A DNA stretch of 64,000 nucleotides from Candidatus Giovannonibacteria bacterium RIFCSPHIGHO2_12_FULL_44_22. GTDB taxonomy: Bacteria; Patescibacteriota; Minisyncoccia; UBA11713; 2-01-FULL-45-33. Positions within the stretch are counted from its first letter, which is position 1. Each line of letters starts with the position of its first letter. Below the pieces are notes generated by a model that did not search any database, was not told the origin of the DNA, and saw only the letters and a list, made by a program, of their open reading frames with translations. Below are positions 7,484 to 34,137 of this stretch, piece after piece. The position numbers and the translations under genes are program-made. The stretch covers positions 75,112 through 139,111 of the forward strand of contig MFHU01000003.1 in the NCBI GenBank assembly GCA_001778695.1, written 5' to 3'.

Positions 7484-7765
7484 ATGATTTCTAAAGAAGA
7501 AATAGAACATCTGAAGGATTTGGCAAGAGTAGAATTTGGAGCGAAGGAAACTGAAAAGCTTGCCAAGGATTTGGACGAGATTTTGGAATACATTGACCAA
7601 CTTAAAAAGGCGGACGTTTCAAACGCTCCGGAAATGACGCACGCGCTGGAGGGAGTAAAAAATATTGTTAGGAAAGATGAAAACAATAAATATAATTCAG
7701 AGGATTTAATCGGCGCGTTTCCCGAAAAAGAAAATAGCTATCTTAAGGTAAAAGCAATTTTATGA
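7484..7765 (+). CDS. gatC: Asp/Glu-tRNA amidotransferase subunit C
   Basis: 93 aa. Motif IEHLKDLARVEF...LDEILEYIDQL typical of GatC. Stop overlaps the gatA start. Confidence 0.8.
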   Translation: MISKEEIEHLKDLARVEFGAKETEKLAKDLDEILEYIDQLKKADVSNAPEMTHALEGVKNIVRKDENNKYNSEDLIGAFPEKENSYLKVKAIL

Positions 7766-9159
7766 CGATTTTAGAATTTCACAAAGCCCTTAAAAATAAA
7801 AAAACTTCCGCAAGAGAGACGGCAATTTCCTATTTGGACAAAATAAAAAAGGAAAATAAAAATTTAAACGCCTATCTGGAAATTTTTTCCGCCAGAGGGG
7901 GATCCGCATCTGGCGGAGAGTATGACGCGCTTAAGCAGGCAAAAGAAATTGACGAGAAAATCGCTTCGGGCGAAGAACCCGGCGCGCTTTGGGGCGTGCC
8001 GATTGCCATAAAAGACAATATTTTAATAAGAGGGGAAATTGCCTCCGCTGCCTCAAAAATTTTAGGAAATTACGTGGCTTCCTACGACGCGCATGTGATT
8101 GCAAAATTAAAAAAAGCTGGCGTAATATTTTTGGGGCGCACCAATATGGACGAATTTGCCATGGGTTCATCAACCGAAAACTCCGCCTACGGTCCGACAA
8201 AAAATCCGCGCGACACTTCCAAAGTTCCGGGTGGTTCATCTGGCGGCTCGGCCGCCGCCGTTGCCGGCGGCCTCGCCATGGCTGCCTTGGGTTCAGATAC
8301 CGGGGGCTCCATCCGCCAGCCGGCGGCTTTTTGCGGAGTTGTTGGTTTGAAGCCCACTTACGGCGCGGTTTCCCGAAACGGACTTATCGCCATGGCTTCT
8401 TCTTTGGACCAAATCGGACCAATTACCCAAACAGTGGAAGACGCGGAAATTTTATTTAATACAATTAAAGGAAAAGACGAAATGGATTCAACTTCTGTTT
8501 TACCAAAAGTTTTCAACCGCGCCGCCAAAATTAAAACCATTGGCATTCCCAAAGAATATTTCAGTGAACAAGGTCTTGACCCCCATATTAAATCAGAACT
8601 TGATAAAGTAATTAACAAACTTGAGAAAAATTATGAAATCCACGAAATCAACTTGCCGCATACCAAATACGCTCTGGCTTGCTACTATATAATTGTACCG
8701 GCGGAAGTTTCATCCAATATGGCGCGGTTTGACGGTGTAAGATACGGCGAAAGAAAAGATGCCGGAAATTTGATTGAAACTTACAAAAAAAGCCGCGGCG
8801 AGGGAATCGGGCTTGAAGTCAGAAGAAGAATTTTGCTGGGCACTTACGCGCTTTCGGCGGGCTACTACAACGCGTATTATTCCAAAGCCCAGCGCGTCCG
8901 TTCGTTGGTTGCAGAAGATTTTAAAAAAGCATTCGCCGAAGTTGATCTGATTTTGGCGCCCACCGTTCCTACTCCGCCTTTTAAAATCGGCGAAAAAACA
9001 AATGACCCATTGGCTATGTACCTTTCCGATATTTATACTATTCCGGCAAACTTGGCGGGCGTGCCAGCGCTCACTTTGGCTTCAGGCGCCCAGCTTATTG
9101 CCCCGCATTTTGAAGAAAATAGATTATTTGAAGTCGGTAAATTTATAGAACATGATTGA
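7762..9159 (+). CDS. gatA: Asp/Glu-tRNA amidotransferase subunit A (amidase)
   Basis: Amidase signature GGSSGGSAAAVA plus GSDTGGSIRQPA. 465 aa. Confidence 0.9.
   Translation: MTILEFHKALKNKKTSARETAISYLDKIKKENKNLNAYLEIFSARGGSASGGEYDALKQAKEIDEKIASGEEPGALWGVPIAIKDNILIRGEIASAASKILGNYVASYDAHVIAKLKKAGVIFLGRTNMDEFAMGSSTENSAYGPTKNPRDTSKVPGGSSGGSAAAVAGGLAMAALGSDTGGSIRQPAAFCGVVGLKPTYGAVSRNGLIAMASSLDQIGPITQTVEDAEILFNTIKGKDEMDSTSVLPKVFNRAAKIKTIGIPKEYFSEQGLDPHIKSELDKVINKLEKNYEIHEINLPHTKYALACYYIIVPAEVSSNMARFDGVRYGERKDAGNLIETYKKSRGEGIGLEVRRRILLGTYALSAGYYNAYYSKAQRVRSLVAEDFKKAFAEVDLILAPTVPTPPFKIGEKTNDPLAMYLSDIYTIPANLAGVPALTLASGAQLIAPHFEENRLFEVGKFIEHD
7889..7918 (+). repeat. GC-rich palindromic mini-insert in gatA, TCCGCCAGA-N12-TCTGGCGGA, encoding (S)ARGGSASGG(E)
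   Basis: 9-bp inverted arms. A near-identical element is present in asnB at 32926-32956. Confidence 0.6.
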
Positions 9160-12420: not shown

Positions 12421-12455
12421 CAGAAGTGGCGGATTTTATCCGCCACTTCTGTTTT
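12421..12455 (-). terminator. Terminator hairpin downstream of the tRNA cluster; A/T runs flank both sides, so possibly bidirectional
   Basis: Perfect 12-bp stem CAGAAGTGGCGG-ATTTTAT-CCGCCACTTCTG, flanked by T and A runs. Confidence 0.6.
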
Positions 12456-12540
12456 ATCATTTTCCAAGCCGATCGGTCTTCCGATAAAAAGTGTTTCGGG
12501 CGCGGGCGATGGGATTTGAACCCACGATCTCCTCTCATGA

Positions 12541-12656
12541 CCCCGCACCAAAAATTTCCAGCGGGCCCGAAGGGATTTGAACCCTCGATCTTCCCCGTGA
12601 CAGGGGGACGTGTTGCCAGGCTACACCACGGGCCCATATTTAATTTTGGTGCGGGG
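12541..12656. repeat. 13-bp perfect inverted repeats (CCCCGCACCAAAA and TTTTGGTGCGGGG) bracketing tRNA-Asp with 8-nt spacers on each side
   Basis: Read directly. The left arm is 12541-12553 and the right arm is 12644-12656. Confidence 0.85.
12562..12635 (-). tRNA. tRNA-Asp (GUC)
   Basis: GGGCCCG-TG-GTGT-AGCCTGGCA-ACAC-G-TCCCC-CTGTCAC-GGGGA-AGATC-GAGGG-TTCAAAT-CCCTT-CGGGCCC-G. Confidence 0.85.
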
Positions 12657-15767: not shown

Positions 15768-17771
15768 ATGCCCAAAAAAACCAAGAAAATAGCGCCCAAA
15801 AATGAGGGGGGGAAAGGGGGGTCGTACACCGCAAAGGATATTTTTGTATTAGAGGGTTTAGAGCCGGTCAGGAAGCGCCCGGGAATGTATATCGGGTCAA
15901 CCGGCGCGGAGGGACTACATCATTTGATTTGGGAAGTAGTGGATAACTCCATAGACGAAGCGATGGCGGGGTACGCCAAAAATATAATTGTGACTCTTTT
16001 GCCGAATCACCGCGTGCGCGTGACGGACGACGGCCGGGGAATTCCGATTGAAGTCCACAAGCAGACAAAAAAATCTGCTTTAGAAACCGTGATGACCATG
16101 CTTCACGCCGGAGCCAAATTCGGCGGAGAGGGTTATAAAGTTTCGGGAGGGCTCCATGGTGTTGGTGTTTCGGTGGTCAACGCTTTATCCAGCTGGATGC
16201 GCGCGGAAGTTTGCCGACCTGCCCGTAATGCTACGCATAGCGTTGCAGGCGGGGAGGGCGAGCACTGGGCGCAGGAATATCAAAGAGGCAAACCAAAAAC
16301 TAAGGTGCAGAAAGTCGGCAAATGCCGAAAGCTGGGGACTTCCATAACATTTGAACCGGATCCGGAAATTTTCGCGGACAGCAAAACCGGAAACATTCCT
16401 GAATTTGATTGGAAAAAAATTCTTGAGAGATTGCGCCAACAGGCGTATTTGACGAAGGGCATAAAAATTTCCATATCCGACGAAAGAGAAAAAAACGAGG
16501 CGGAACAAAATTCTTATTCTTTTTATTTTGAAGGCGGGGTGGCTTCCTACGTGAAATATTTAAACGAGGGGTTTACTCCGAAGCACGACACGATTTTTTA
16601 CACTCAAAAAGAATCCGAGGAAATCTTGGTTGAAATCGCTTTGCAATATGTTGACGATTTGCAGACGAGGGAGTTGGCTTTCGCCAATAATATTTTAAAC
16701 CCCGAAGGCGGTATGCATTCCACGGGTTTTCGGACGGCGCTCACAAGGTCGCTCAATTCTTACGCCAGAAAAAATAGTTATCTAAAAGAATCTGAAGAAA
16801 ATCTAACTGGAGAAGACGCGCGGGAAGGGCTCACTTCAATAATTTCCATAAAACTTAAAAATCCGCAGTTTGAAGGGCAGACCAAGGCCAAACTGGGCAA
16901 CCCCGAGGCACGTACGGCGGTGGACGATGTTTTCGCAAAATCTTTTGACGCTTTTTTGGAAGAGCGCCCGCAGGATGCCCGCGCTATTTTGGAAAAAGTA
17001 ATTTTAGCGTTAAAAGCCAGAAAGGCAGCCAAGGCGGCCAAGGATACTATTTTAAGAAAGGGCGCTTTGGACGGCCTGGCGCTTCCGGGAAAGCTGGCGG
17101 ACTGCCAGAGCAAGAATCCCGCCGAGTCGGAAATTTTTATCGTGGAAGGCGATTCGGCCGGAGGCTCGGCTAAGCAGGCGCGCGACAGGAGATTTCAGGC
17201 GATACTTCCTTTGCGTGGAAAAATTTTGAACGTGGAAAAAGCCCGCTTGGACAGAATGCTGACTTCAGACCAAATAAAAACCTTGGTCATCGCGTTGGGA
17301 GCGGCGATTGCGGAAAGTTTTGACCTTTCAAAATTAAGATACCACCGCATCGTGATTATGACCGATGCCGACGTTGACGGCGCGCACATCCGCACGCTTT
17401 TGCTCACGCTTTTTTACAGATATTATTTGCCATTGATTCAAAAGGGATATATTTATATAGCCCAGCCACCGCTTTATAAAATTCAAAAAGGGAAAGAAAT
17501 CAAATACGTTTATTCAGAAGAAGAAAAAAATAAAACAGTAAAATATTTTGATAATCCCAATATTCAGCGCTACAAAGGCCTGGGAGAAATGAACGCCGAC
17601 GAATTGGGCGAGACAACAATGGACCCGGCCAAGCGCGTTTTGAGGCAGGTGACGATTGACGACGCCAAAGGCGCAGATCATATTTTTGATGTTTTGATGG
17701 GCGACGACGTCGCCCCCCGCAAACTTTTTATCCAAACCCACGCCAAGGCGGTAAAGAATTTGGATATATAA
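15768..17771 (+). CDS. gyrB: DNA gyrase / topoisomerase IV subunit B
   Basis: GHKL ATPase motifs (EVVDNSIDEAMAG, GLHGVGVSVVNALS) and Toprim (EGDSAGGS, PLRGKILNVE). 667 aa. Confidence 0.9.
   Translation: MPKKTKKIAPKNEGGKGGSYTAKDIFVLEGLEPVRKRPGMYIGSTGAEGLHHLIWEVVDNSIDEAMAGYAKNIIVTLLPNHRVRVTDDGRGIPIEVHKQTKKSALETVMTMLHAGAKFGGEGYKVSGGLHGVGVSVVNALSSWMRAEVCRPARNATHSVAGGEGEHWAQEYQRGKPKTKVQKVGKCRKLGTSITFEPDPEIFADSKTGNIPEFDWKKILERLRQQAYLTKGIKISISDEREKNEAEQNSYSFYFEGGVASYVKYLNEGFTPKHDTIFYTQKESEEILVEIALQYVDDLQTRELAFANNILNPEGGMHSTGFRTALTRSLNSYARKNSYLKESEENLTGEDAREGLTSIISIKLKNPQFEGQTKAKLGNPEARTAVDDVFAKSFDAFLEERPQDARAILEKVILALKARKAAKAAKDTILRKGALDGLALPGKLADCQSKNPAESEIFIVEGDSAGGSAKQARDRRFQAILPLRGKILNVEKARLDRMLTSDQIKTLVIALGAAIAESFDLSKLRYHRIVIMTDADVDGAHIRTLLLTLFYRYYLPLIQKGYIYIAQPPLYKIQKGKEIKYVYSEEEKNKTVKYFDNPNIQRYKGLGEMNADELGETTMDPAKRVLRQVTIDDAKGADHIFDVLMGDDVAPRKLFIQTHAKAVKNLDI
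16217..16253 (+). repeat. GC-rich partly palindromic insert in gyrB, CCTGCCCGT...GCAGGCGGGG, encoding an apparent insertion of about 15 aa (CRPARNATHSVAGGEGE)
   Basis: The same end motifs (CCTGCCCGT and GCAGGCGGGG) recur at 31341-31364 in a GT4 gene. Confidence 0.5.
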
Positions 17772-27302: not shown

Positions 27303-29438
27303 ATGAGCGAAAAACCTGCGGTTTTAGTTTTTACTACCGCTTATTTCCCGTTTGTGGGAGGAGCGGAAGTGGCGATACAGGAAGTGGCAAGAAGGCTCAA
27401 AAATGAGTACGATTTTTTTATTTTTACTTCAAGAATGGACGGCAAACTCCCAGCGCGCGAAAAAAGGCTAGAAGGATTGGTAATCAGAATTGGTTTTGGA
27501 AATAAATTTGATAAATTCTGGCTTTTAATTTTTGGATGGTTTGTAGCTTGGCGGGAATTGAGAAAGTGGCATAGAAAAATTATTTTTTGGGTTATGGATT
27601 TTTCGTTCGGGGCCGCGGTAGCTGGATTTTTGAAAATTTTTTATCCGAAAATTCCGTTGGTTTTTACAATTCAATATGGCTACGGCGACGAAAGAGTTAA
27701 AAAAGGCAGAGGTGGCCTTATGAATTTGGCATTTCGGCTGATACTTTCGCAGGCGGATTATGTTACGGCAATTTCAAATTATTTATTGAATTTATGCAAG
27801 CAGTACGGCTATATTGGCGAGGAAGCGGTAATACACAACGGGGTTGATTTAAAAAAGTTTACAAATCAAGAATCACGAATAGGAAATCATGTGATAATTT
27901 CAACCTCGCGGCGAGTTTACAAAAATGGTCTGGATATTCTGGAAAAGGCCTTCGAGATCATAAAAAAGAAATTTCCAGATGCCGAGTTGAAAATTGTTAG
28001 CGACGTTCCGTATGATGAATTGCCTAAATATTTATGGAAAGCTAGTATCTTCGTCAGACCCTCGCGCTCTGAGGGGATGGGCAATGCGTTTATTGAAGCT
28101 TTAGCGGCCGGATTACCGATAATTGGCACGCCTGTCGGAGGGATTTTAGATATTATTGAGGATGGGCAGACGGGTCTTTTCGCGAAAGTTGACGACCCAC
28201 AAGATTTAGCAGAGAAAATTAAAATTTTACTCGAAGATAAAAAATTGGTGTCGCAAATTATAGAAAATGGTAGAAAAATAGTTGAAGAAAGATTTTCTTG
28301 GGATAAAATCGCGGCGCAATACGCCGAGGTTTTTAATTCGCAATTAAATACAAAAAAAAGAATACTGATAGTCACAGGAATTTTCCCGCCCGATGTCGGT
28401 GGACCGGCGACATACAGCAAAATTTTACTAGACGAGTTGCCTAAAGAAAATTTTTGCGCAAAAGTATTAAGTTTCGGAAGCGTTAAATATTTGCCCAAAG
28501 GCATTAGCCATATTGCTTATTTCCTTAAAGCCATGCGGTTAGGCGCGCGCGCCGATATTATTTTCGCGCAGGATCCGGTGAGTGTGGGGTTGCCCGCGAT
28601 GCTAGCGGCAAAAATTTTGCGCAAAAAATTTATTTTAAAAATCGTGGGCGATTATGCTTGGGAACAAGGCGTTCAGCGGTTCGAGGTGAAAGAGATTTTA
28701 GATGATTTTTTAAATAAGAAATACGGTATTAATGTGGAGGTTTTGAGAAAAATAGAAAAATTTGTCGCAAATCACACAGAAAAAATTATCGTGCCGAGCG
28801 AGTATTTGAAAAAAGTTGTTTCGGCGTGGGGCGTAAATCCGAATAAAATTAAAGTAATTTATAATGCGTTTGATTTTAAAGACTTCGAACACACACTTAG
28901 ACGTCCGACGTCTAAGTTGATTGTTTCGGCGGGTCGTCTTGTTCCGTGGAAAGGATTCGGCACTTTAATTGAGATTATGCCAAAGATTTTAAGAGAAGTG
29001 CCGGACGCGAAGTTGATTATTATTGGAGATGGACCGGAAAGACACAAATTAAAATTACAAGTAGCCACTTGGCGGCTCGGCCGCCAAGTGGAACTTATAG
29101 GAAATCTGCCGCATAAAAAAGTTTTGGAATATCTCGCTTCCGCCGATGCTTTTATTTTAAACACTGCCTACGAAGGATTTTCGCACCAAATTTTGGAGGC
29201 GATGGCAATTGGGGCGCCTGTTATCACGACAAACGTTTGCGGAAATCCGGAGTTGGTGGAAAACAATGTCTCCGGAATTTTGGTCGAATTTAACGATAAG
29301 GAAGCGATTAAAAATTCTATTTTAAAATTATTGAAAGACGAAAAACTTACTCAAAAATTAACCTCCGCCGCTTTCCAAAAATCCAAACAATTTTCAAAAG
29401 AGAGGATGATTAATGAAACGATAAAAATATTATTATGA
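27303..29438 (+). CDS. Tandem two-domain glycosyltransferase (GT4 + GT4)
   Basis: Two EX7E-type motifs: SEGMGNAFIEALAAGLPIIGT and FSHQILEAMAIGAPVITT. Confidence 0.7.
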   Translation: MSEKPAVLVFTTAYFPFVGGAEVAIQEVARRLKNEYDFFIFTSRMDGKLPAREKRLEGLVIRIGFGNKFDKFWLLIFGWFVAWRELRKWHRKIIFWVMDFSFGAAVAGFLKIFYPKIPLVFTIQYGYGDERVKKGRGGLMNLAFRLILSQADYVTAISNYLLNLCKQYGYIGEEAVIHNGVDLKKFTNQESRIGNHVIISTSRRVYKNGLDILEKAFEIIKKKFPDAELKIVSDVPYDELPKYLWKASIFVRPSRSEGMGNAFIEALAAGLPIIGTPVGGILDIIEDGQTGLFAKVDDPQDLAEKIKILLEDKKLVSQIIENGRKIVEERFSWDKIAAQYAEVFNSQLNTKKRILIVTGIFPPDVGGPATYSKILLDELPKENFCAKVLSFGSVKYLPKGISHIAYFLKAMRLGARADIIFAQDPVSVGLPAMLAAKILRKKFILKIVGDYAWEQGVQRFEVKEILDDFLNKKYGINVEVLRKIEKFVANHTEKIIVPSEYLKKVVSAWGVNPNKIKVIYNAFDFKDFEHTLRRPTSKLIVSAGRLVPWKGFGTLIEIMPKILREVPDAKLIIIGDGPERHKLKLQVATWRLGRQVELIGNLPHKKVLEYLASADAFILNTAYEGFSHQILEAMAIGAPVITTNVCGNPELVENNVSGILVEFNDKEAIKNSILKLLKDEKLTQKLTSAAFQKSKQFSKERMINETIKILL
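28894..28921 (+). repeat. Second copy of the CACTTAGACGTCCGACGTCTAAGTTGAT palindromic element
   Basis: Identical 28 nt to 14757-14784. It encodes LRRPTSKL in-frame. Confidence 0.8.
29065..29091 (+). repeat. Hairpin element CCACTTGGCGGC-TCG-GCCGCCAAGTGG (12-bp stem) inside a GT CDS, encoding TWRLGRQV
   Basis: Read directly. A second copy lies at 29835-29873. Confidence 0.8.
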
Positions 29439-30484
29439 AAGTCTTAATGATAAGCGGGGATCCGGGGGTTTTGAATCCGAATAGCGACGCGGGAAAGCGG
29501 ATGGAAGAATATCGCCAAACTCTTGGAACATTAGATATTTTAGTCTGCCGAGGAAATATTTTTAGTTTTATTACAGGATTTTTTCGCGGCGTAAAAATCA
29601 TTCGCAAAAATAAACCCGAAGTTATTACAGCTCAAGATATGGAACATTCTCTATTTGCTTGGATTTTTTCAAGATTATTTAAAGTTCCGTGGCAGATGCA
29701 GATTCATACGGATATTTTTAGTCCGTATTTTTGGCAGGAATCTTTTAAAAATAAAATACGCGTTGTGCTGGCAAAATTCTTGTTGCCTCGAGCAAGTTGT
29801 ATTCGGGTTATGAGCGAAAGAATTAAAGAATCAATAACTTGGCGGCTCGGCCGCCAAGTGGCGGCCGAGTTATTCGTTACAGTTTTGCCAATTTTTGTGG
29901 ATACGGAAAAAATTAAAAATACGCCGATTAAAACCAATCTTCACAAAAAATATCCCGGGCGGTTTATAATTTTGATGGCATCGCGGATAACAAGAGAAAA
30001 AAATATCGTCATGGCCTTAGAGGCCATGCGCGGACTAACGCAGAATGACACGCGGACTAACGCAGAAAAGGTTTTATTGCTGATTATCGGTGATGGGCCG
30101 GAGAAAGAACACTTACGGCGTATGGCGTATAGCTTAAAGCTGGATGAGAGCGTTGTTTTTGAGTCAGCTACTTCCGACCTCGCTTCTTATTATAAAACCT
30201 GCGATTTGTTTTTGCTCACCTCCGATTACGAAGGGTACGGAAGAACTTTGATTGAGGCGGCGGCCATTAAAGCCAAAATAATCTCCTCCGATGTCGGAAT
30301 AGTTCCGGAAATTTTAGAGTTGGATTGTATTTTTAAAATTGGTGATAAGGATGGTTTGGCTGAAAAAATCAACGCCGCTTTGGCAGGCCAACTCAAGCCG
30401 CCAAAACCTGTGATTTTTCAAACAAAAGAGGAATATCTAAGATTATATAAGAATAACTTGGAACAATGCCAAAAAATATTTTAA
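29435..30484 (+). CDS. Glycosyltransferase family 4
   Basis: C-terminal YEGYGRTLIEAAAIKAKIISSDVG. Confidence 0.6.
   Translation: MKVLMISGDPGVLNPNSDAGKRMEEYRQTLGTLDILVCRGNIFSFITGFFRGVKIIRKNKPEVITAQDMEHSLFAWIFSRLFKVPWQMQIHTDIFSPYFWQESFKNKIRVVLAKFLLPRASCIRVMSERIKESITWRLGRQVAAELFVTVLPIFVDTEKIKNTPIKTNLHKKYPGRFIILMASRITREKNIVMALEAMRGLTQNDTRTNAEKVLLLIIGDGPEKEHLRRMAYSLKLDESVVFESATSDLASYYKTCDLFLLTSDYEGYGRTLIEAAAIKAKIISSDVGIVPEILELDCIFKIGDKDGLAEKINAALAGQLKPPKPVIFQTKEEYLRLYKNNLEQCQKIF
29835..29873 (+). repeat. Second copy of the TTGGCGGCTCGGCCGCCAAGTGG hairpin element, extended by CGGCCGAGTTATT
   Basis: ACTTGGCGGCTCGGCCGCCAAGTGG is identical to 29067-29091. It encodes TWRLGRQV. Confidence 0.8.
30011..30072 (+). 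repeat. Hairpin ATGGCCT-TAG-AGGCCAT followed by a tandem 22-bp duplication (CGCGGACTAACGCAG x2) inside a GT4 CDS
   Basis: Read directly. It encodes MALEAMRGLTQNDTRTNAEK. Confidence 0.7.
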
Positions 30485-31509: not shown

Positions 31510-32339
31510 GAGAAAAAATTCCATGCTCTATTGGTGTTCTCACTTTAAACTCGGGCGGCACTTTGAGGCGCTGTTTGGATTCGCTTAAAGATTTTACAGA
31601 AATCATAATTTGCGACGGCAATAGCACTGACAACACTTTGGAAATCGCCAGGGAGTATGGCGCCAAAATCGTAAAACAGTACGATTCCGATGAGCCGAAT
31701 TTGCGTTGTGAAAAAGACAAGGCCAATGTCCGGATGCGCAATATGCGAGCGGCTTCTTACGACTGGTATTTTTTTATGGATTCGGACGATATACTCCCCG
31801 ATGGAATTACGGAAGAGATTAGAAGCATAGTAACGAATCCTGGTCCGCAATTTTTAGTTTATCGTATGCCCGGGCGTATTTTTATTGATGGACGAGAGAT
31901 AAAACACGAAGCTAGTTACCCTTCGTATCAGACTAGATTGATAAACCGAAAAATCAATCCTTATTTCAAAGGCCGCGTGCATGACCGTCTGGAATTTGAC
32001 CGCAAAAAATATAAAGTAGGGGAATTAAAAAATTATTATGACTTTCATTGGTCAAAAGACCGGGTCCAAAATTATTGGAAGTATCTTAAAATGTATTCCG
32101 GTTGGGAGGCGGAAGTCGCTAACGGCGGGCCGTGGCTGGCATTTTTTTACTGGTGTGTTTATAAACGACTCCGCATCATCGCCGGATATCTCTATAGAAT
32201 TCCTTTAATGTATTTGCGGTACGGATTCCGGGATTCCATGCCTTTAAAACTTCAGCTTTTAACCTTGTGGTATCATTTTTATCTTTTATATTTATTTACC
32301 AAGAAGCAAATTTTTTATGTGCGCAATAAATGGGTTTAA
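31506..32339 (+). CDS. Glycosyltransferase family 2
   Basis: GT-A fold: IGVLTLNSGGTL...ICDGNSTDNT and the DxD motif FMDSDD. Confidence 0.6.
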   Translation: MREKIPCSIGVLTLNSGGTLRRCLDSLKDFTEIIICDGNSTDNTLEIAREYGAKIVKQYDSDEPNLRCEKDKANVRMRNMRAASYDWYFFMDSDDILPDGITEEIRSIVTNPGPQFLVYRMPGRIFIDGREIKHEASYPSYQTRLINRKINPYFKGRVHDRLEFDRKKYKVGELKNYYDFHWSKDRVQNYWKYLKMYSGWEAEVANGGPWLAFFYWCVYKRLRIIAGYLYRIPLMYLRYGFRDSMPLKLQLLTLWYHFYLLYLFTKKQIFYVRNKWV

Positions 32340-34137
32340 CTTCAAAGACGAGGGGCTGATCTTGAAAATGAATCAGGCAACGCGCCACAGGGGCCCAGAC
32401 GGCACAGGAATTTTTTTGGGCGAAAAAATTTCTTTAGGGCATAATCGCTTAAGCATAATTGACTTGAGCGATGCCGCAAATCAGCCTATGTTTTCCTCCG
32501 ACGGCAATTTAGTGATTAGTTTTAACGGAGAAATTTATAATTTCCGCGAGATTAAAAGAGAATTTGAAGATTTTTATAAATTTAAAACCAATAGCGACAC
32601 GGAAGTTATTTTAGCCGCTTATCAAAAATGGGGCGCCGAATTCGTTAAAAAATTAAACGGGATTTTTGCTTTTGTAATTTGGGACAAAACTAAAGAAGAA
32701 TTATTTTTAGCGAGAGACCACATAGGCTTGAAGCCTTTATATTATTTTTTGGATGGCGATAGATTTATTTTTTCTTCTGAAATTAAAGCTATTTTGGAGC
32801 ATGATGTGCCTCGGAAGCTCAACCGCGAAGCATTTAATATTTATTTAAGAACGCTTTACGCGCCGGCGCCGCTCACTATGTTTGAAGGAATTTATAAATT
32901 CCCGCAGGCGCATTATGGCGTTTTCTCCGCCAAAGGCGGATCTGCCTCGGGCGGAAAAAATGGCGAATTTAAACTCACAAAATATTGGGAAATTCCAGTA
33001 ATAAAATATTTTGATACTCCTTTTAAAATTTTGGCGAAAAATTTGCGCGGTGAAATTTTAAAAAGCGTGGAGCGGCAATTAATTTCCGACCGGCCGATCG
33101 GGCTTTACCTTTCCGGCGGGATTGATTCCAGCGCGGTGCTAGATGCTATGCATGAATTTAGAAACAATATTGATACTTTTTCAGTGGGCTTTGAATTGCC
33201 TAATAAAGATGACGAAAATAAATTCAACCAGGATTTTTATTTGGCCAAGCGCACGGCGGCGCTCTATGGGACCAGGCACCATGAAATTTTATTGGAAGAA
33301 AAAGAAGTGCTGAATCTTTGGGAAAAAGTTTTTTTACAGCTTGACGAGCCGATTGCCAACTCCACTGCCATCCCGATGATGAAATTAGCCGAATTCACCA
33401 AGGGCCATGGGGTAGATGTGGTTTTGGGAGGCGACGGCGGGGACGAACTTTTCGGAGGGTACGAAAGATACAGATTGAGCAGAATTATTGGCTATTTCCC
33501 AAAAATATTGTCATTTTTGCCAAAGGGAGTGGACATATTTTCCCGTTTTATGTTTCAAAAAGATCCTGTTTTAAATGAAGTTTTGCAAAAAAAGTTTTTT
33601 GACAGAGAAGTTTCAAGATCGTTTTTTGAAGAACGCTATTTTAAAGAAAATCCGTTCAAAACTTTTGAGGAACTTTTTATGGACGTGGACAGGCGGACGT
33701 GGCTTGTTGATGAGTCGCTAATGCGGACGGATAAAATGTCTATGTTCTCGGCGGTTGAGGCGAGGGCGCCTCTTTTGGACAAAAATCTTATTGAATTCGC
33801 GGCGAAAATTCCCAGAAAATACAAAGTCAGCGCATTCAACACAAAAATTATTTTAAAAGAGGCGTTTATGGGACGGATTCCGGATTTTTTATTATCCCAG
33901 CCGAAACGTGGCTGGTTTTCTCCGGCGGCCAAATGGTTGAGGAACCCCCAAATTCATGCTACCGCTAAAAATATTCTCTCCAAAAATTATTACGCCGAAA
34001 CCGCGCCTATATTTAATTGGGAAAATGTTGATAAAATTCTAAAAGACCATATTGAAGGCAGAAGATACAACCTCACAATTTTGTGGGCGTTGATTAATTT
34101 TCAAGTTTGGGCGAAACTCTATAAAGTTAAATTATGA
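32317..34137 (+). CDS. asnB: Asparagine synthetase (glutamine-hydrolysing)
   Basis: N-terminal MCAING with catalytic Cys2. PP-loop SGGIDSS. 606 aa. Confidence 0.85.
   Translation: MCAINGFNFKDEGLILKMNQATRHRGPDGTGIFLGEKISLGHNRLSIIDLSDAANQPMFSSDGNLVISFNGEIYNFREIKREFEDFYKFKTNSDTEVILAAYQKWGAEFVKKLNGIFAFVIWDKTKEELFLARDHIGLKPLYYFLDGDRFIFSSEIKAILEHDVPRKLNREAFNIYLRTLYAPAPLTMFEGIYKFPQAHYGVFSAKGGSASGGKNGEFKLTKYWEIPVIKYFDTPFKILAKNLRGEILKSVERQLISDRPIGLYLSGGIDSSAVLDAMHEFRNNIDTFSVGFELPNKDDENKFNQDFYLAKRTAALYGTRHHEILLEEKEVLNLWEKVFLQLDEPIANSTAIPMMKLAEFTKGHGVDVVLGGDGGDELFGGYERYRLSRIIGYFPKILSFLPKGVDIFSRFMFQKDPVLNEVLQKKFFDREVSRSFFEERYFKENPFKTFEELFMDVDRRTWLVDESLMRTDKMSMFSAVEARAPLLDKNLIEFAAKIPRKYKVSAFNTKIILKEAFMGRIPDFLLSQPKRGWFSPAAKWLRNPQIHATAKNILSKNYYAETAPIFNWENVDKILKDHIEGRRYNLTILWALINFQVWAKLYKVKL
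32926..32956 (+). repeat. GC-rich palindromic mini-insert in asnB encoding (S)AKGGSASGG(K)
   Basis: TCCGCC...GGCGGA arms. Paralogous to the gatA element at 7889-7918. Confidence 0.6.

Follow-up and report, generated by a model that had tools for sequence, protein, structure and literature searches.

The window analysed in this study is a 64-kb stretch of a metagenome contig from Candidatus Giovannonibacteria (Patescibacteria, candidate phyla radiation, CPR) with a GC content of 38–47%. Two of its genes, the amidase-family gene gatA, which follows gatC, and an asnB-like gene for a glutamine-hydrolysing asparagine synthase within a glycosyltransferase cluster, each contain a palindromic DNA element of 30 nucleotides, which adds ten residues to the encoded protein (Table 1). 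The initial annotation had described an element of about 30 bp and a shared peptide in these two genes, and both the sequence and the reading frame bear this out. The sites it gave are real, but its gatA interval (7889–7918) lies one base off, and its asnB interval (32926–32956) is wrong at 31 nt, the element being 30 nt long. The element is not peculiar to these two enzymes: it belongs to a family that is found across many phyla, in coding as well as in non-coding DNA.

The inserts and their host genes

Both inserts start at a codon boundary of the host open reading frame (ORF) and are read in the same frame; read-through is predicted to yield the peptides ...EIFSARGGSASGGEYD... and ...GVFSAKGGSASGGKNG.... 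The two copies are identical at 25 of 30 nucleotides, and four of the five differences are synonymous, the remaining one being an R/K exchange. Relative to the family consensus, copy 1 has two synonymous third-position changes (GGC>GGG and GCC>GCA) and copy 2 has one (TCC>TCT). With these three stem departures, all at synonymous third positions, the window copies read as old and slightly decayed.

The GC content of the element (70%) is well above that of the window. The degenerate motif proposed in the initial annotation occurs at only two sites in the 64 kb, even with up to three mismatches allowed, against an expectation of 0.00 from 100 dinucleotide-preserving shuffles of the window. A profile built from 114 foreign copies likewise matches the window at these two sites only (E = 4e-12 and 6e-8). 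Together, the shuffle expectation and the profile matches rule out a chance origin of the two copies. Further or degenerate copies were not found in the window by a mismatch search, a six-frame peptide search, an nhmmer profile or a scan for generic 6-3-6 hairpins. The inverted-repeat arms pair at 9 of 9 bp in the first site and at 6 of 6 bp, plus a partial match, in the second, and folding of each strand is much better than that of shuffled sequences (z = -3.8 to -5.9).

The ten residues had been taken for additions to the normal sequences of GatA and AsnB, a view that is confirmed by the closest orthologues, which lack them, and by exact empty sites in DNA. In 114 of the 120 closest GatA homologues, including those with 84% identity, ...LEVF is joined directly to E.DA..., and the ten AsnB residues are missing from the closest homologues (74–85% identical). 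In the closest relative, the empty sites read GTT TTT|GAA GAT (gatA) and GTT TTT|ACA AAC (asnB), while filled alleles read TTT|30 nt|GAx or AAA, with zero bases duplicated or lost; this comparison of filled and empty alleles reveals no target-site duplication at either site. Among relatives, filled, single-unit and empty alleles occur at identical gatA and asnB sites.

The two enzymes, although unrelated, do have a DNA element and an extra peptide in common. In orthologues, the peptide is either missing or accompanied by the palindromic nucleotide signature, and the only departures from this rule are visibly decayed copies (SASGREGK in P0035 and SAKD in P0128). Structure modelling, which the initial annotation had suggested for locating the inserts, places them in disordered loops of both proteins. 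In the AlphaFold model of GatA, the insert forms a coil between a strand (residues 38–41) and a helix (56–68), with a predicted local distance difference test (pLDDT) score below 50 at residues 46–49. In that of AsnB, it extends the turn of a β-hairpin (strands 199–204 and 218–222), and residues 208–214 are the sole segment with a pLDDT below 50 in a model with a mean of 93.4.

Table 1. Element copies, target flanks and host genes in the window
Feature	Position	Strand	Sequence	Remarks
Element copy 1, double unit	7888–7917		TCCGCCAGAGGGGGATCCGCATCTGGCGGA	in gatA; + strand reads SARGGSASGG
Copy 1, unit a	7888–7902		TCCGCC AGA GGGGGA
Copy 1, unit b	7903–7917		TCCGCA TCT GGCGGA
Element copy 2, double unit	32926–32955		TCCGCCAAAGGCGGATCTGCCTCGGGCGGA	in asnB-like gene; encodes SAKGGSASGG
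Copy 2, unit a	32926–32940		TCCGCC AAA GGCGGA	intact unit
Copy 2, unit b	32941–32955		TCTGCC TCG GGCGGA
Host gene 1, gatA	7762–9159	+		insert = codons 43–52
Host gene 2, asnB-like	32317–34137	+		insert = codons 204–213
Left target flank, gatA	7885–7887	+	TTT	Phe codon; also present in empty orthologous sites
Right target flank, gatA	7918–7920	+	GAG	GAA in empty orthologues; purine-A side of T-run/A-run target
Left target flank, asnB	32923–32925	+	TTC	Phe codon
Right target flank, asnB	32956–32958	+	AAA	Lys codon

A family built from 15-nucleotide units

The element is composed of a 15-nt palindrome, TCCGCC-N3-GGCGGA, whose 6-bp stem encloses a variable centre of 3 nt, and the usual form of the element consists of two such units placed head to tail (30 nt, junction GGATCC). 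We consider the 15-nt palindrome to be the basic unit because one- and two-unit inserts share the exact gatA position across lineages. In other lineages, for instance, double-unit alleles at this site read TCCGCC CAA GGCGGA TCCGCC TAT GGCGGA and TCCGCC GAA GGCGGA TCCGCC TCT GGCGGA, and alleles of only 15 nt read TCCGCC GAA GGCGGA and TCCGCC TCT GGCGGA. Alleles with one unit could have arisen by slippage between the repeated arms. Overall, copies with one, two and about 4.5 units are seen, as are multi-unit arrays. The first loop is mostly of the type nnA (AAA, GAA, CAA, GGA, AGA), the second mostly Tnn (TCT, TCC, TTT, TCG), and the two are usually non-complementary.

As a whole, the double unit is a near-perfect palindrome, and most genome matches fit the search pattern described below on both strands. 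One long hairpin is thermodynamically preferred; in the few and noisy informative cases, compensatory variants fall within units, where they break the pairing of the long hairpin. Such compensated changes occur in degenerate copies, three times independently as CCCGCC...GGCGGG and once as CCCTCC...GGAGGG. When the five GatA alleles are compared with one another, 46 of 52 stem-codon comparisons are identical, versus 85 of 211 for synonymous codons in the flanks (44 flanking codons; Fisher p = 1e-10). Judged from these alignments, the stems are maintained or renewed at the DNA level and not as protein sequence. No Rfam family matches at the insert sites.

To survey the family, we scanned one genome per species with the pattern TCCGCCNNNGGNGGATCNGCNTNNGGCGGA (22 specified bases) and obtained at least 120 loci with at least 126 copies. 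Since base composition predicts at most about one match in the whole collection, the family-wide occurrence is not due to chance, although a few high-GC matches may be. Loci, frames and flanks are counted here and below among the matches listed. All of these loci are from metagenome-assembled genomes (MAGs), which come from many laboratories, assemblers and read types, including long-read MAGs. According to the record labels, 58 loci belong to CPR lineages, 10 to Omnitrophota, 8 to Kiritimatiellae/Verrucomicrobiota/Lentisphaerae, 4 to Planctomycetes, 6 to Ignavibacteria/Bacteroidota and 13 to 'Gammaproteobacteria' (co-assembly bins), the remaining loci being various other or unclassified. Carriage by phages is ruled out by the mere 2 matches in 2.9 million viral contigs and the lack of matches in GenBank phages; likewise, PLSDB plasmids and 5,426 E. 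coli genomes yielded no match. In the literature, the exact DNA string is found only in unrelated cloning primers and GGSASGG only as an engineered flexible linker, and no description of the element was found in the searchable literature on CPR, palindromic, in-frame, MITE (a miniature transposable element with inverted repeats), GIY-YIG and tRNA elements. The element is apparently undescribed.

Where it lies within genes, the element is found in unrelated hosts, namely PheT, two AspS proteins (at different positions), a class-I aminoacyl-tRNA synthetase, DnaK, an ATP-synthase-beta-like protein, TsaD, UvrC, an RpoB-like protein and C-terminal domains of the type IX secretion system (T9SS). The inserts lie at any position in the chain and often close to its ends. 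Beyond genes, it occurs in intergenic DNA and in tRNA-gene fragments. A Giovannonibacteria relative, whose contig (L124) also carries the gatA double unit, has a single unit (TCCGCCTTGGGCGGA, 17187–17201) in frame in gyrB (...MKGF|SALGG|EKLS...), another essential gene with the element. Larger repeats, too, are built with the module. A Kiritimatiellae MAG has the double unit within a repeat of ~200 nt on several contigs (L003 at 4484, L006 at 4587 and 6408, L057 at 7325), and in the Ga0172380 metagenome (L134, L141, L182, L208, L231), a composite repeat consists of two double units, a conserved 23-nt spacer between them and inverted flanks on the outside.

The length of the element is always a multiple of three. 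We counted a copy as confidently coding if a long, dominant ORF spans it; 49 of 53 such copies lie in frame 0 and encode Ser-Ala-x-Gly-Gly-Ser-Ala-x-Gly-Gly. Copies under short ORFs only, which are probably intergenic, are distributed equally over the frames (13/9/13). The left flank is T-rich, with T at position -2 in 98 of 125 cases, and the right flank A-rich, with A at +2 in 106 of 126, and this preference is alike in coding and non-coding copies. It belongs to the target and not to the insert, because empty orthologous sites already read TTT|GAA or are TTT|AAA-like. Similar junctions are found in tRNA loops (CTTG|AAAA, GGTTC|, CAGTT|). The frame bias would reflect purifying selection, with frame 0 encoding a flexible linker, in combination with the exclusion of one frame, since T|AA placed one base into a codon would create a TAA stop in the empty gene. 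In the other excluded frame, the element reads Pro-Pro-x-Ala-Asp-Pro-Pro, and this frame is probably filtered by selection acting on the peptide.

The family is distributed patchily within its host proteins. GatA sequences with the insert are dispersed through the tree; each has sisters that lack it, and the loop triplets differ, a distribution consistent with repeated gains at a hot spot. AsnB sequences with the insert have the loops AAA/TCG in common, yet are never monophyletic (0 of 50 bootstraps), which on these trees requires precise loss or an exchange of alleles by recombination. Among the sequences clustered at 90% identity with the window GatA are 455-aa members in which precisely the insert is missing and the C-terminal 270 residues are identical, as well as a third allele, SAEGGSASGG. 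In three members of this cluster (P0243, P0245, P0246), the N-terminal ~190 residues are divergent while the C-terminal ~270 are identical to the window protein. This mosaicism indicates recombination of co-occurring strains or chimeric assembly, and it bears on the reading of insert loss. Elsewhere, a pair of orthologues with 51% identity (L059/L099) carries the element at a common site with different loops.

GIY-YIG cassettes at tRNA genes

A dedicated mobilising gene is not apparent in the vicinity of the dispersed copies. All-against-all clustering of 5,284 ORFs from 120 loci revealed no recurrent neighbour, the best cluster, a membrane protein, being present at 5 of the 120 loci. No linked transposase was found in the element-bearing loci, and the genes that separate paired copies are of ordinary kinds, such as ribosomal and glycosyltransferase genes. 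About 1 Mb of these loci contains 2 matches to Y1 transposases, neither of them near a unit. In one relative, the contig L126 (560–1440) encodes a 229-aa Y1_Tnp-like protein of the RAYT type beside gatC, with the palindrome TGTTCGAAGTCGGACTTCGAACA on both sides. This gene is ruled out as the mobiliser, as it is bracketed by a different palindrome of its own; it represents a REPtron-like arrangement in a CPR contig that is unrelated to the element.

Unlike the dispersed copies, multi-unit arrays are associated with a specific gene family. The 120-locus set contains two such arrays (L003 and L029), and both are located just upstream of a ~90-aa ORF with a GIY-YIG domain. For this reason, we scanned metagenomes for arrays of at least three units, gathered without regard to genes, and obtained 106 loci. 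The set is heterogeneous: many loci are unrelated tandem repeats of longer period that contain the hairpin, and true double units are present in 25 of the 106. In unbiased clustering, the top ORF family within 300 nt of the arrays is a ~86-aa GIY-YIG protein, with six loci near an array and none far from one. A profile search gave the same picture, as all six GIY-YIG genes in the array set lie within 1–129 nt of an array (chance about 1e-5 given the locus lengths), and the six cassette proteins match Pfam family PF01541 with E = 1e-11 to 1e-16. In a blind test, we searched a protein database with a profile of these proteins and selected three GIY-YIG genes (P0281, P0359, P0290; 81–85 aa) by profile score and contig count only. 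An exact unit was found 55–140 nt from the gene in 30 of 30 loci, which represent three independent contexts, each time beside a partial tRNA copy. Given a base rate of about one unit per 40–60 kb, three out of three would be expected by chance with a probability of roughly 3e-6.

These small GIY-YIG genes (80–95 aa) are located immediately upstream of tRNA genes or overlap them (L238–L267, for example L258 at 1400–1860, and L125, L029, L162, L220, L226); the neighbouring tRNAs are Asn, Asn, Pro, Phe, Ser, Gln and Leu. Upstream of the cassette lies a duplicated 5' tRNA fragment that extends up to the D-loop, and the unit sits exactly at the junction with a partial copy of the neighbouring tRNA. 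In L258, for instance, TCGGGGTGTGGCGCAGTT|TCCGCCGGAGGCGGA... is followed by the GIY-YIG gene and then by a complete tRNA-Pro. In L238, the order is 5' fragment of tRNA-Asn | units, GIY-YIG gene, intact tRNA-Asn, units | 3' fragment of tRNA-Asn. The array of L029 is inside a partial tRNA-Ser, in its anticodon loop (CTTG|AAAA), L162 has tandem tRNA-Phe fragments with a unit in place of the D-arm, and in L226 the unit follows GGTTC| in tRNA-Ser fragments. The left junctions of the cassettes (GTT|, TTG|, TTC|, GTA|) resemble the left flank of the dispersed copies.

The cassettes appear to be tRNA-targeting mobile elements, distinct from the group I introns of Patescibacteria. A reading of the tRNA loci as group I or group II introns was rejected, as the window and 12 cassette loci have no Rfam matches other than tRNA and rRNA; moreover, a complete tRNA and not a 3' exon follows the cassette. 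GIY-YIG genes without a nearby unit carry other terminal hairpins beside tRNA fragments (L125, L078, L030). The GIY-YIG lineage and its terminal hairpin appear to co-vary, like RAYTs and their palindromes (PMC3733652).

Individual cassette loci show further peculiarities. Downstream of a 16S gene in L258, two GIY-YIG cassettes precede successive tRNAs; in L248, an ORF of the 23S_rRNA_IVP family lies beside the cassette; and in L220, the GIY-YIG ORF runs into the unit and ends in ...GSASGG.

Proposed spread of the module

The module has been gained, shortened and lost among relatives, with a defined unit, a defined target and no target duplication. The window inserts are decaying copies of a palindromic module, which in our view is probably selfish and resembles repetitive extragenic palindromic (REP) sequences and Rickettsia palindromic elements (RPEs), a reading that includes spread derived from GIY-YIG cassettes. 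Such a module would be neutral to mildly deleterious. It is added at the junction of a T-run and an A/purine run (TTY|RAA) without target-site duplication, and intragenic copies in frame 0 would survive, read as a harmless Gly/Ser/Ala linker. Copies shrink to one unit, decay by point mutation and are precisely missing in close relatives.

With somewhat less than even confidence, we further suggest that the module is the terminal sequence of the small GIY-YIG cassettes in tRNA genes, and that the dispersed copies of 15 or 30 nt are cargo-less derivatives spread in trans by the nuclease, much as REP sequences are by the RAYT transposase. The nuclease could cleave TTY|RAA sites, into which the module would be copied during repair; alternatively, the hairpin ends could be joined. 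It is possible, if doubtful, that domain-only GIY-YIG nucleases dispersing cargo-less ends of 15 or 30 nt into TTY|RAA sites constitute a new class of mobile DNA. In that case, the palindrome of 15 nt would serve nucleases settled in tRNA genes as both end and recognition sequence, and essential proteins of over ten bacterial phyla would receive Gly/Ser/Ala linkers. The weakest step is the spread of the module in trans by a GIY-YIG nuclease.

Several observations weigh against this interpretation. We infer the mobility of the element from its distribution alone. No GIY-YIG gene is present in the 64-kb window, the distance to any unit is 0.9–4.8 kb for five GIY-YIG genes of element-bearing loci, and the dispersed copies in the 120 loci have no linked gene; consequently, the nuclease would have to act in trans. 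GIY-YIG enzymes are homing or repair nucleases that are not known to transpose DNA, and homing needs homology in the flanks, which the unrelated host genes do not offer. Of the seven array-linked GIY-YIG genes, five are within 300 nt of a tRNA, and the association could be indirect, with hairpins and cassettes both simply preferring tRNA genes. The loop polarity (nnA on the left, Tnn on the right) relative to the GIY-YIG gene, considered as a mark of left and right cassette ends, is inconsistent across cassettes; it fits L181 and L238, but not L220 or L227, and was rejected. In addition, the occupancy of identical sites in diverged orthologues (gatA in at least six lineages, L059/L099) exceeds what the short TTY|RAA preference alone would explain. 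Finally, the genome-scan pattern fixed the stems, so that their invariance across phyla is partly built in, and the listed matches come exclusively from MAGs.

The main alternative is templated patch repair of breaks or stalled forks at T-run/A-run junctions, in which short stretches of existing hairpin arrays would be copied ectopically, by micro-conversion or template switching, without a dedicated enzyme. The palindrome would then maintain itself by intra-strand correction, and the GIY-YIG genes would be mere neighbours at tRNA genes. The missing transposase and target-site duplication, the variable number of units (1, 2, about 4.5) and the mosaic GatA sequences all agree with such repair, as do hairpins inside tandem partial-tRNA repeats that resemble repair scars. 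Moreover, an independent, identical 25-nt patch in two adjacent paralogous genes of glycosyltransferase family 4 (GT4) implies that short ectopic patches occur in this genome. Patch repair nevertheless fails to account for the recurrence of one 15-nt sequence in more than 10 phyla, for the consistency of the target junction and for the location of the unit precisely at the edge of GIY-YIG cassettes in independent tRNA genes, and we consider it unlikely.

The GT4 patch is a palindrome, ACTTGGCGGCTCGGCCGCCAAGTGG, at 29066–29090 and 29836–29860 in two adjacent genes (27303–29438 and 29435–30484). It is read in one frame in both and encodes TWRLGRQV at non-equivalent protein positions. Its copy in the first gene overlaps with the conserved '...ELGL..V.F.G' region of GT4, and that in the second takes the place of an equally long stretch of a hypervariable linker and is found in no homologue. 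It is no clean insertion and was rejected as an insertion of the element's kind; its appearance is that of a short patch of ectopic conversion between adjacent paralogues.

It is improbable that the hairpin is instead kept for a function of the nucleic acid and has spread because it is useful, either as an mRNA structure for ribosome pausing or stability, or as a protein-binding palindrome (GGATCC, GGCGGA) serving as an operator or restriction/modification site. The predicted structure is very stable, the stems are conserved above the synonymous background and show compensatory changes within units, and an inverted repeat with a 3-bp spacer is typical of homodimer sites. Nevertheless, hosts and positions are unrelated, the closest relatives lack the insert with nothing else changed, the window copies are decaying in their stems, Rfam has no match, and presence is patchy within species-level clusters.

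We give little credence to an ordinary REP/REPIN family that is mobilised on single-stranded hairpins by a RAYT, an IS200/IS605-type Y1 transposase. Elements of the IS200/IS605 group have a one-sided tetranucleotide target, whereas the target described here is symmetric on both flanks. The flank logos of 126 copies lack the unpaired GTAG or CGTC tag of REPs, the Y1 gene beside gatC in L126 is bracketed by a different palindrome (GTTCGAAGTCGGACTTCGAAC), and the two Y1 matches in about 1 Mb are not near a unit. In favour of this reading are that L126 gene, a general likeness in form and the missing target-site duplication, as a RAYT leaves none either. REPs are GC-rich stem-loops of 20–40 bp with a stem of 5–13 bp and a loop of 2–20 (PMC3733652), and occasionally lie inside genes, adding 20–30 residues (Di Nocera et al., 2013; PMC3733652). 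Our element is likewise a short GC-rich stem-loop (6-bp stem and 3-nt loop per unit, 30 bp for the double unit) that is present as monomers, dimers and clusters (15 nt, 30 nt, multi-unit arrays) and in many dispersed copies. The cassettes extend the resemblance, since an enzyme gene has repeats on both sides, dispersed copies are not linked to it, and enzyme lineages have palindromes of their own. On the other hand, the unit measures only 15 nt, no REPtron (a RAYT flanked by the element's units) is found in about 1 Mb of element-bearing loci, and the partner gene encodes a GIY-YIG nuclease and not a Y1 transposase of the HUH (histidine–hydrophobic–histidine) type. Furthermore, half or more of the copies sampled lie inside genes in a strict frame, and there is one sequence across phyla instead of a family per species.

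That the peptide SAxGGSAxGG is itself selected, as a convergently acquired linker, modification or cleavage site, for example, with the palindrome as a by-product of its codons, is very improbable. The frame bias (49 of 53 coding copies), the three synonymous stem changes in the window and the use of GGSASGG as an engineered flexible linker speak for it, but it is largely refuted by copies outside coding DNA, within tRNA fragments and in both of the remaining frames; in addition, the codons (TCC GCC .. GGC GGA) are fixed far beyond synonymous expectation, single-unit and empty alleles are functional in close relatives, and both inserts are modelled as disordered loops. A technical artefact, such as an adaptor or linker remnant or an assembly chimera, would suit a BamHI site, a linker-like peptide, matches confined to MAGs or metagenome contigs and their absence from plasmid, E. 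coli and phage collections, but can be dismissed in view of the many laboratories, assemblers and read technologies (long-read MAGs included), the orthologous sites with lineage-specific loop triplets and graded decay, the frame bias and target preference, which library chemistry cannot produce, and the restriction of literature string matches to unrelated cloning primers.

The selfish module can also be set against other known systems. RPEs are palindromic elements of about 100–150 bp (RPE-1 to RPE-10), restricted to Rickettsia and relatives (Rickettsiales), that encode a sizeable conserved peptide segment, which is judged to be compatible with the fold and function of the protein (PMC10969869). 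Like them, our element is palindromic, putatively selfish DNA that lies in frame in many unrelated, often essential genes and adds a peptide where the fold is undisturbed (a GatA coil and an AsnB hairpin turn, both in models only); unlike them, it measures 15 or 30 bp, encodes a Gly/Ser/Ala linker of 5 or 10 residues and has its hosts in CPR, Omnitrophota, the Planctomycetes–Verrucomicrobia–Chlamydiae (PVC) group and others. With MITEs it shares terminal inverted repeats, but not the target-site duplication. A transposase of a parent insertion sequence with the same ends was not found in the element-bearing loci; the unit does terminate GIY-YIG nuclease cassettes, whose enzyme class is not known to transpose DNA. 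Mitochondrial GC clusters and repetitive hairpin-forming elements (yeast, PMC4478555; sponges, PMC2800124) are GC-rich hairpins or double hairpins of a few tens of bases, dispersed in AT-rich genomes, coding regions included, and are considered mobile by inference, without an encoded transposase. They are similar in these respects, but our element lies in bacterial contigs with bacterial housekeeping genes and differs in sequence and target. Comparable hairpin modules are the double-hairpin elements of Allomyces and the 'byp' elements of Magnusiomyces, which are skipped by the ribosome. In contrast to byp elements, the length is a multiple of three here, and the frame bias indicates ordinary read-through translation.

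Among homing systems, the Seg genes of phage T4 are free-standing GIY-YIG homing endonuclease genes. To our knowledge, no solo derivative has been described for homing endonuclease genes. Patescibacteria have insertions in tRNA and rRNA genes, tRNA group I introns among them (PMC13011429, PMC11270868). The cassettes resemble both in being small ORFs at conserved RNA genes, with partial target duplications and multiple copies in CPR. They differ in that they are not introns, encode domain-only proteins of 80–95 aa and end in a 15-nt palindrome, which also exists as much smaller solo copies elsewhere. In sum, the element departs in defining features from each of its nearest systems, and works like REP/RAYT and RPE.

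If the module is indeed selfish and mobile, it would lower the size limit of mobile-like bacterial DNA to 15 nt, making these the smallest mobile elements known, and would imply that streamlined CPR genomes tolerate selfish DNA inside core genes of translation and metabolism. It would amount to a natural repeated experiment on the tolerance of proteins to flexible insertions of 5–10 residues, useful for protein engineering and for understanding unexplained indels in CPR proteins and phylogenomic alignments. One sequence shared by CPR, Omnitrophota, PVC and Ignavibacteria of common habitats would mark DNA exchange across phyla. If the GIY-YIG link holds as well, a small GIY-YIG 'nuclease family protein' and TCCGCC-N3-GGCGGA would be a testable enzyme-substrate pair, a very abundant orphan gene family would gain a function, and the system would be a nuclease-driven counterpart of REP/RAYT. 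It could also answer how palindromic repeats without a RAYT spread, a question that has been raised for CGTC REPs (PMC3733652).

Two other hairpins were noted. At 12422–12456, the window contains a perfect hairpin with a 13-bp stem, AACAGAAGTGGCGGATTTTATCCGCCACTTCTGTT, followed by a T-run and located about 110 nt from a tRNA (12562–12635). It contains GGCGGA...TCCGCC, an arrangement opposite to that of the element, and is probably a bidirectional intrinsic terminator. The other is a recurrent locus with five TCCGCC-(CGG/CCG/CGC)-GGCGGA hairpins at an exact spacing of 41 nt, which adjoins a class-I fumarate-hydratase-like gene and is found in L156 (802–980), L169, L170, L174, L199, L201, L202, L203, L211, L221, L223 and L236. 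The period is too short for CRISPR, and the 26-nt spacers are conserved between contigs; in L156, the array has no Rfam match. It may be an undescribed structured RNA or a protein-binding array.

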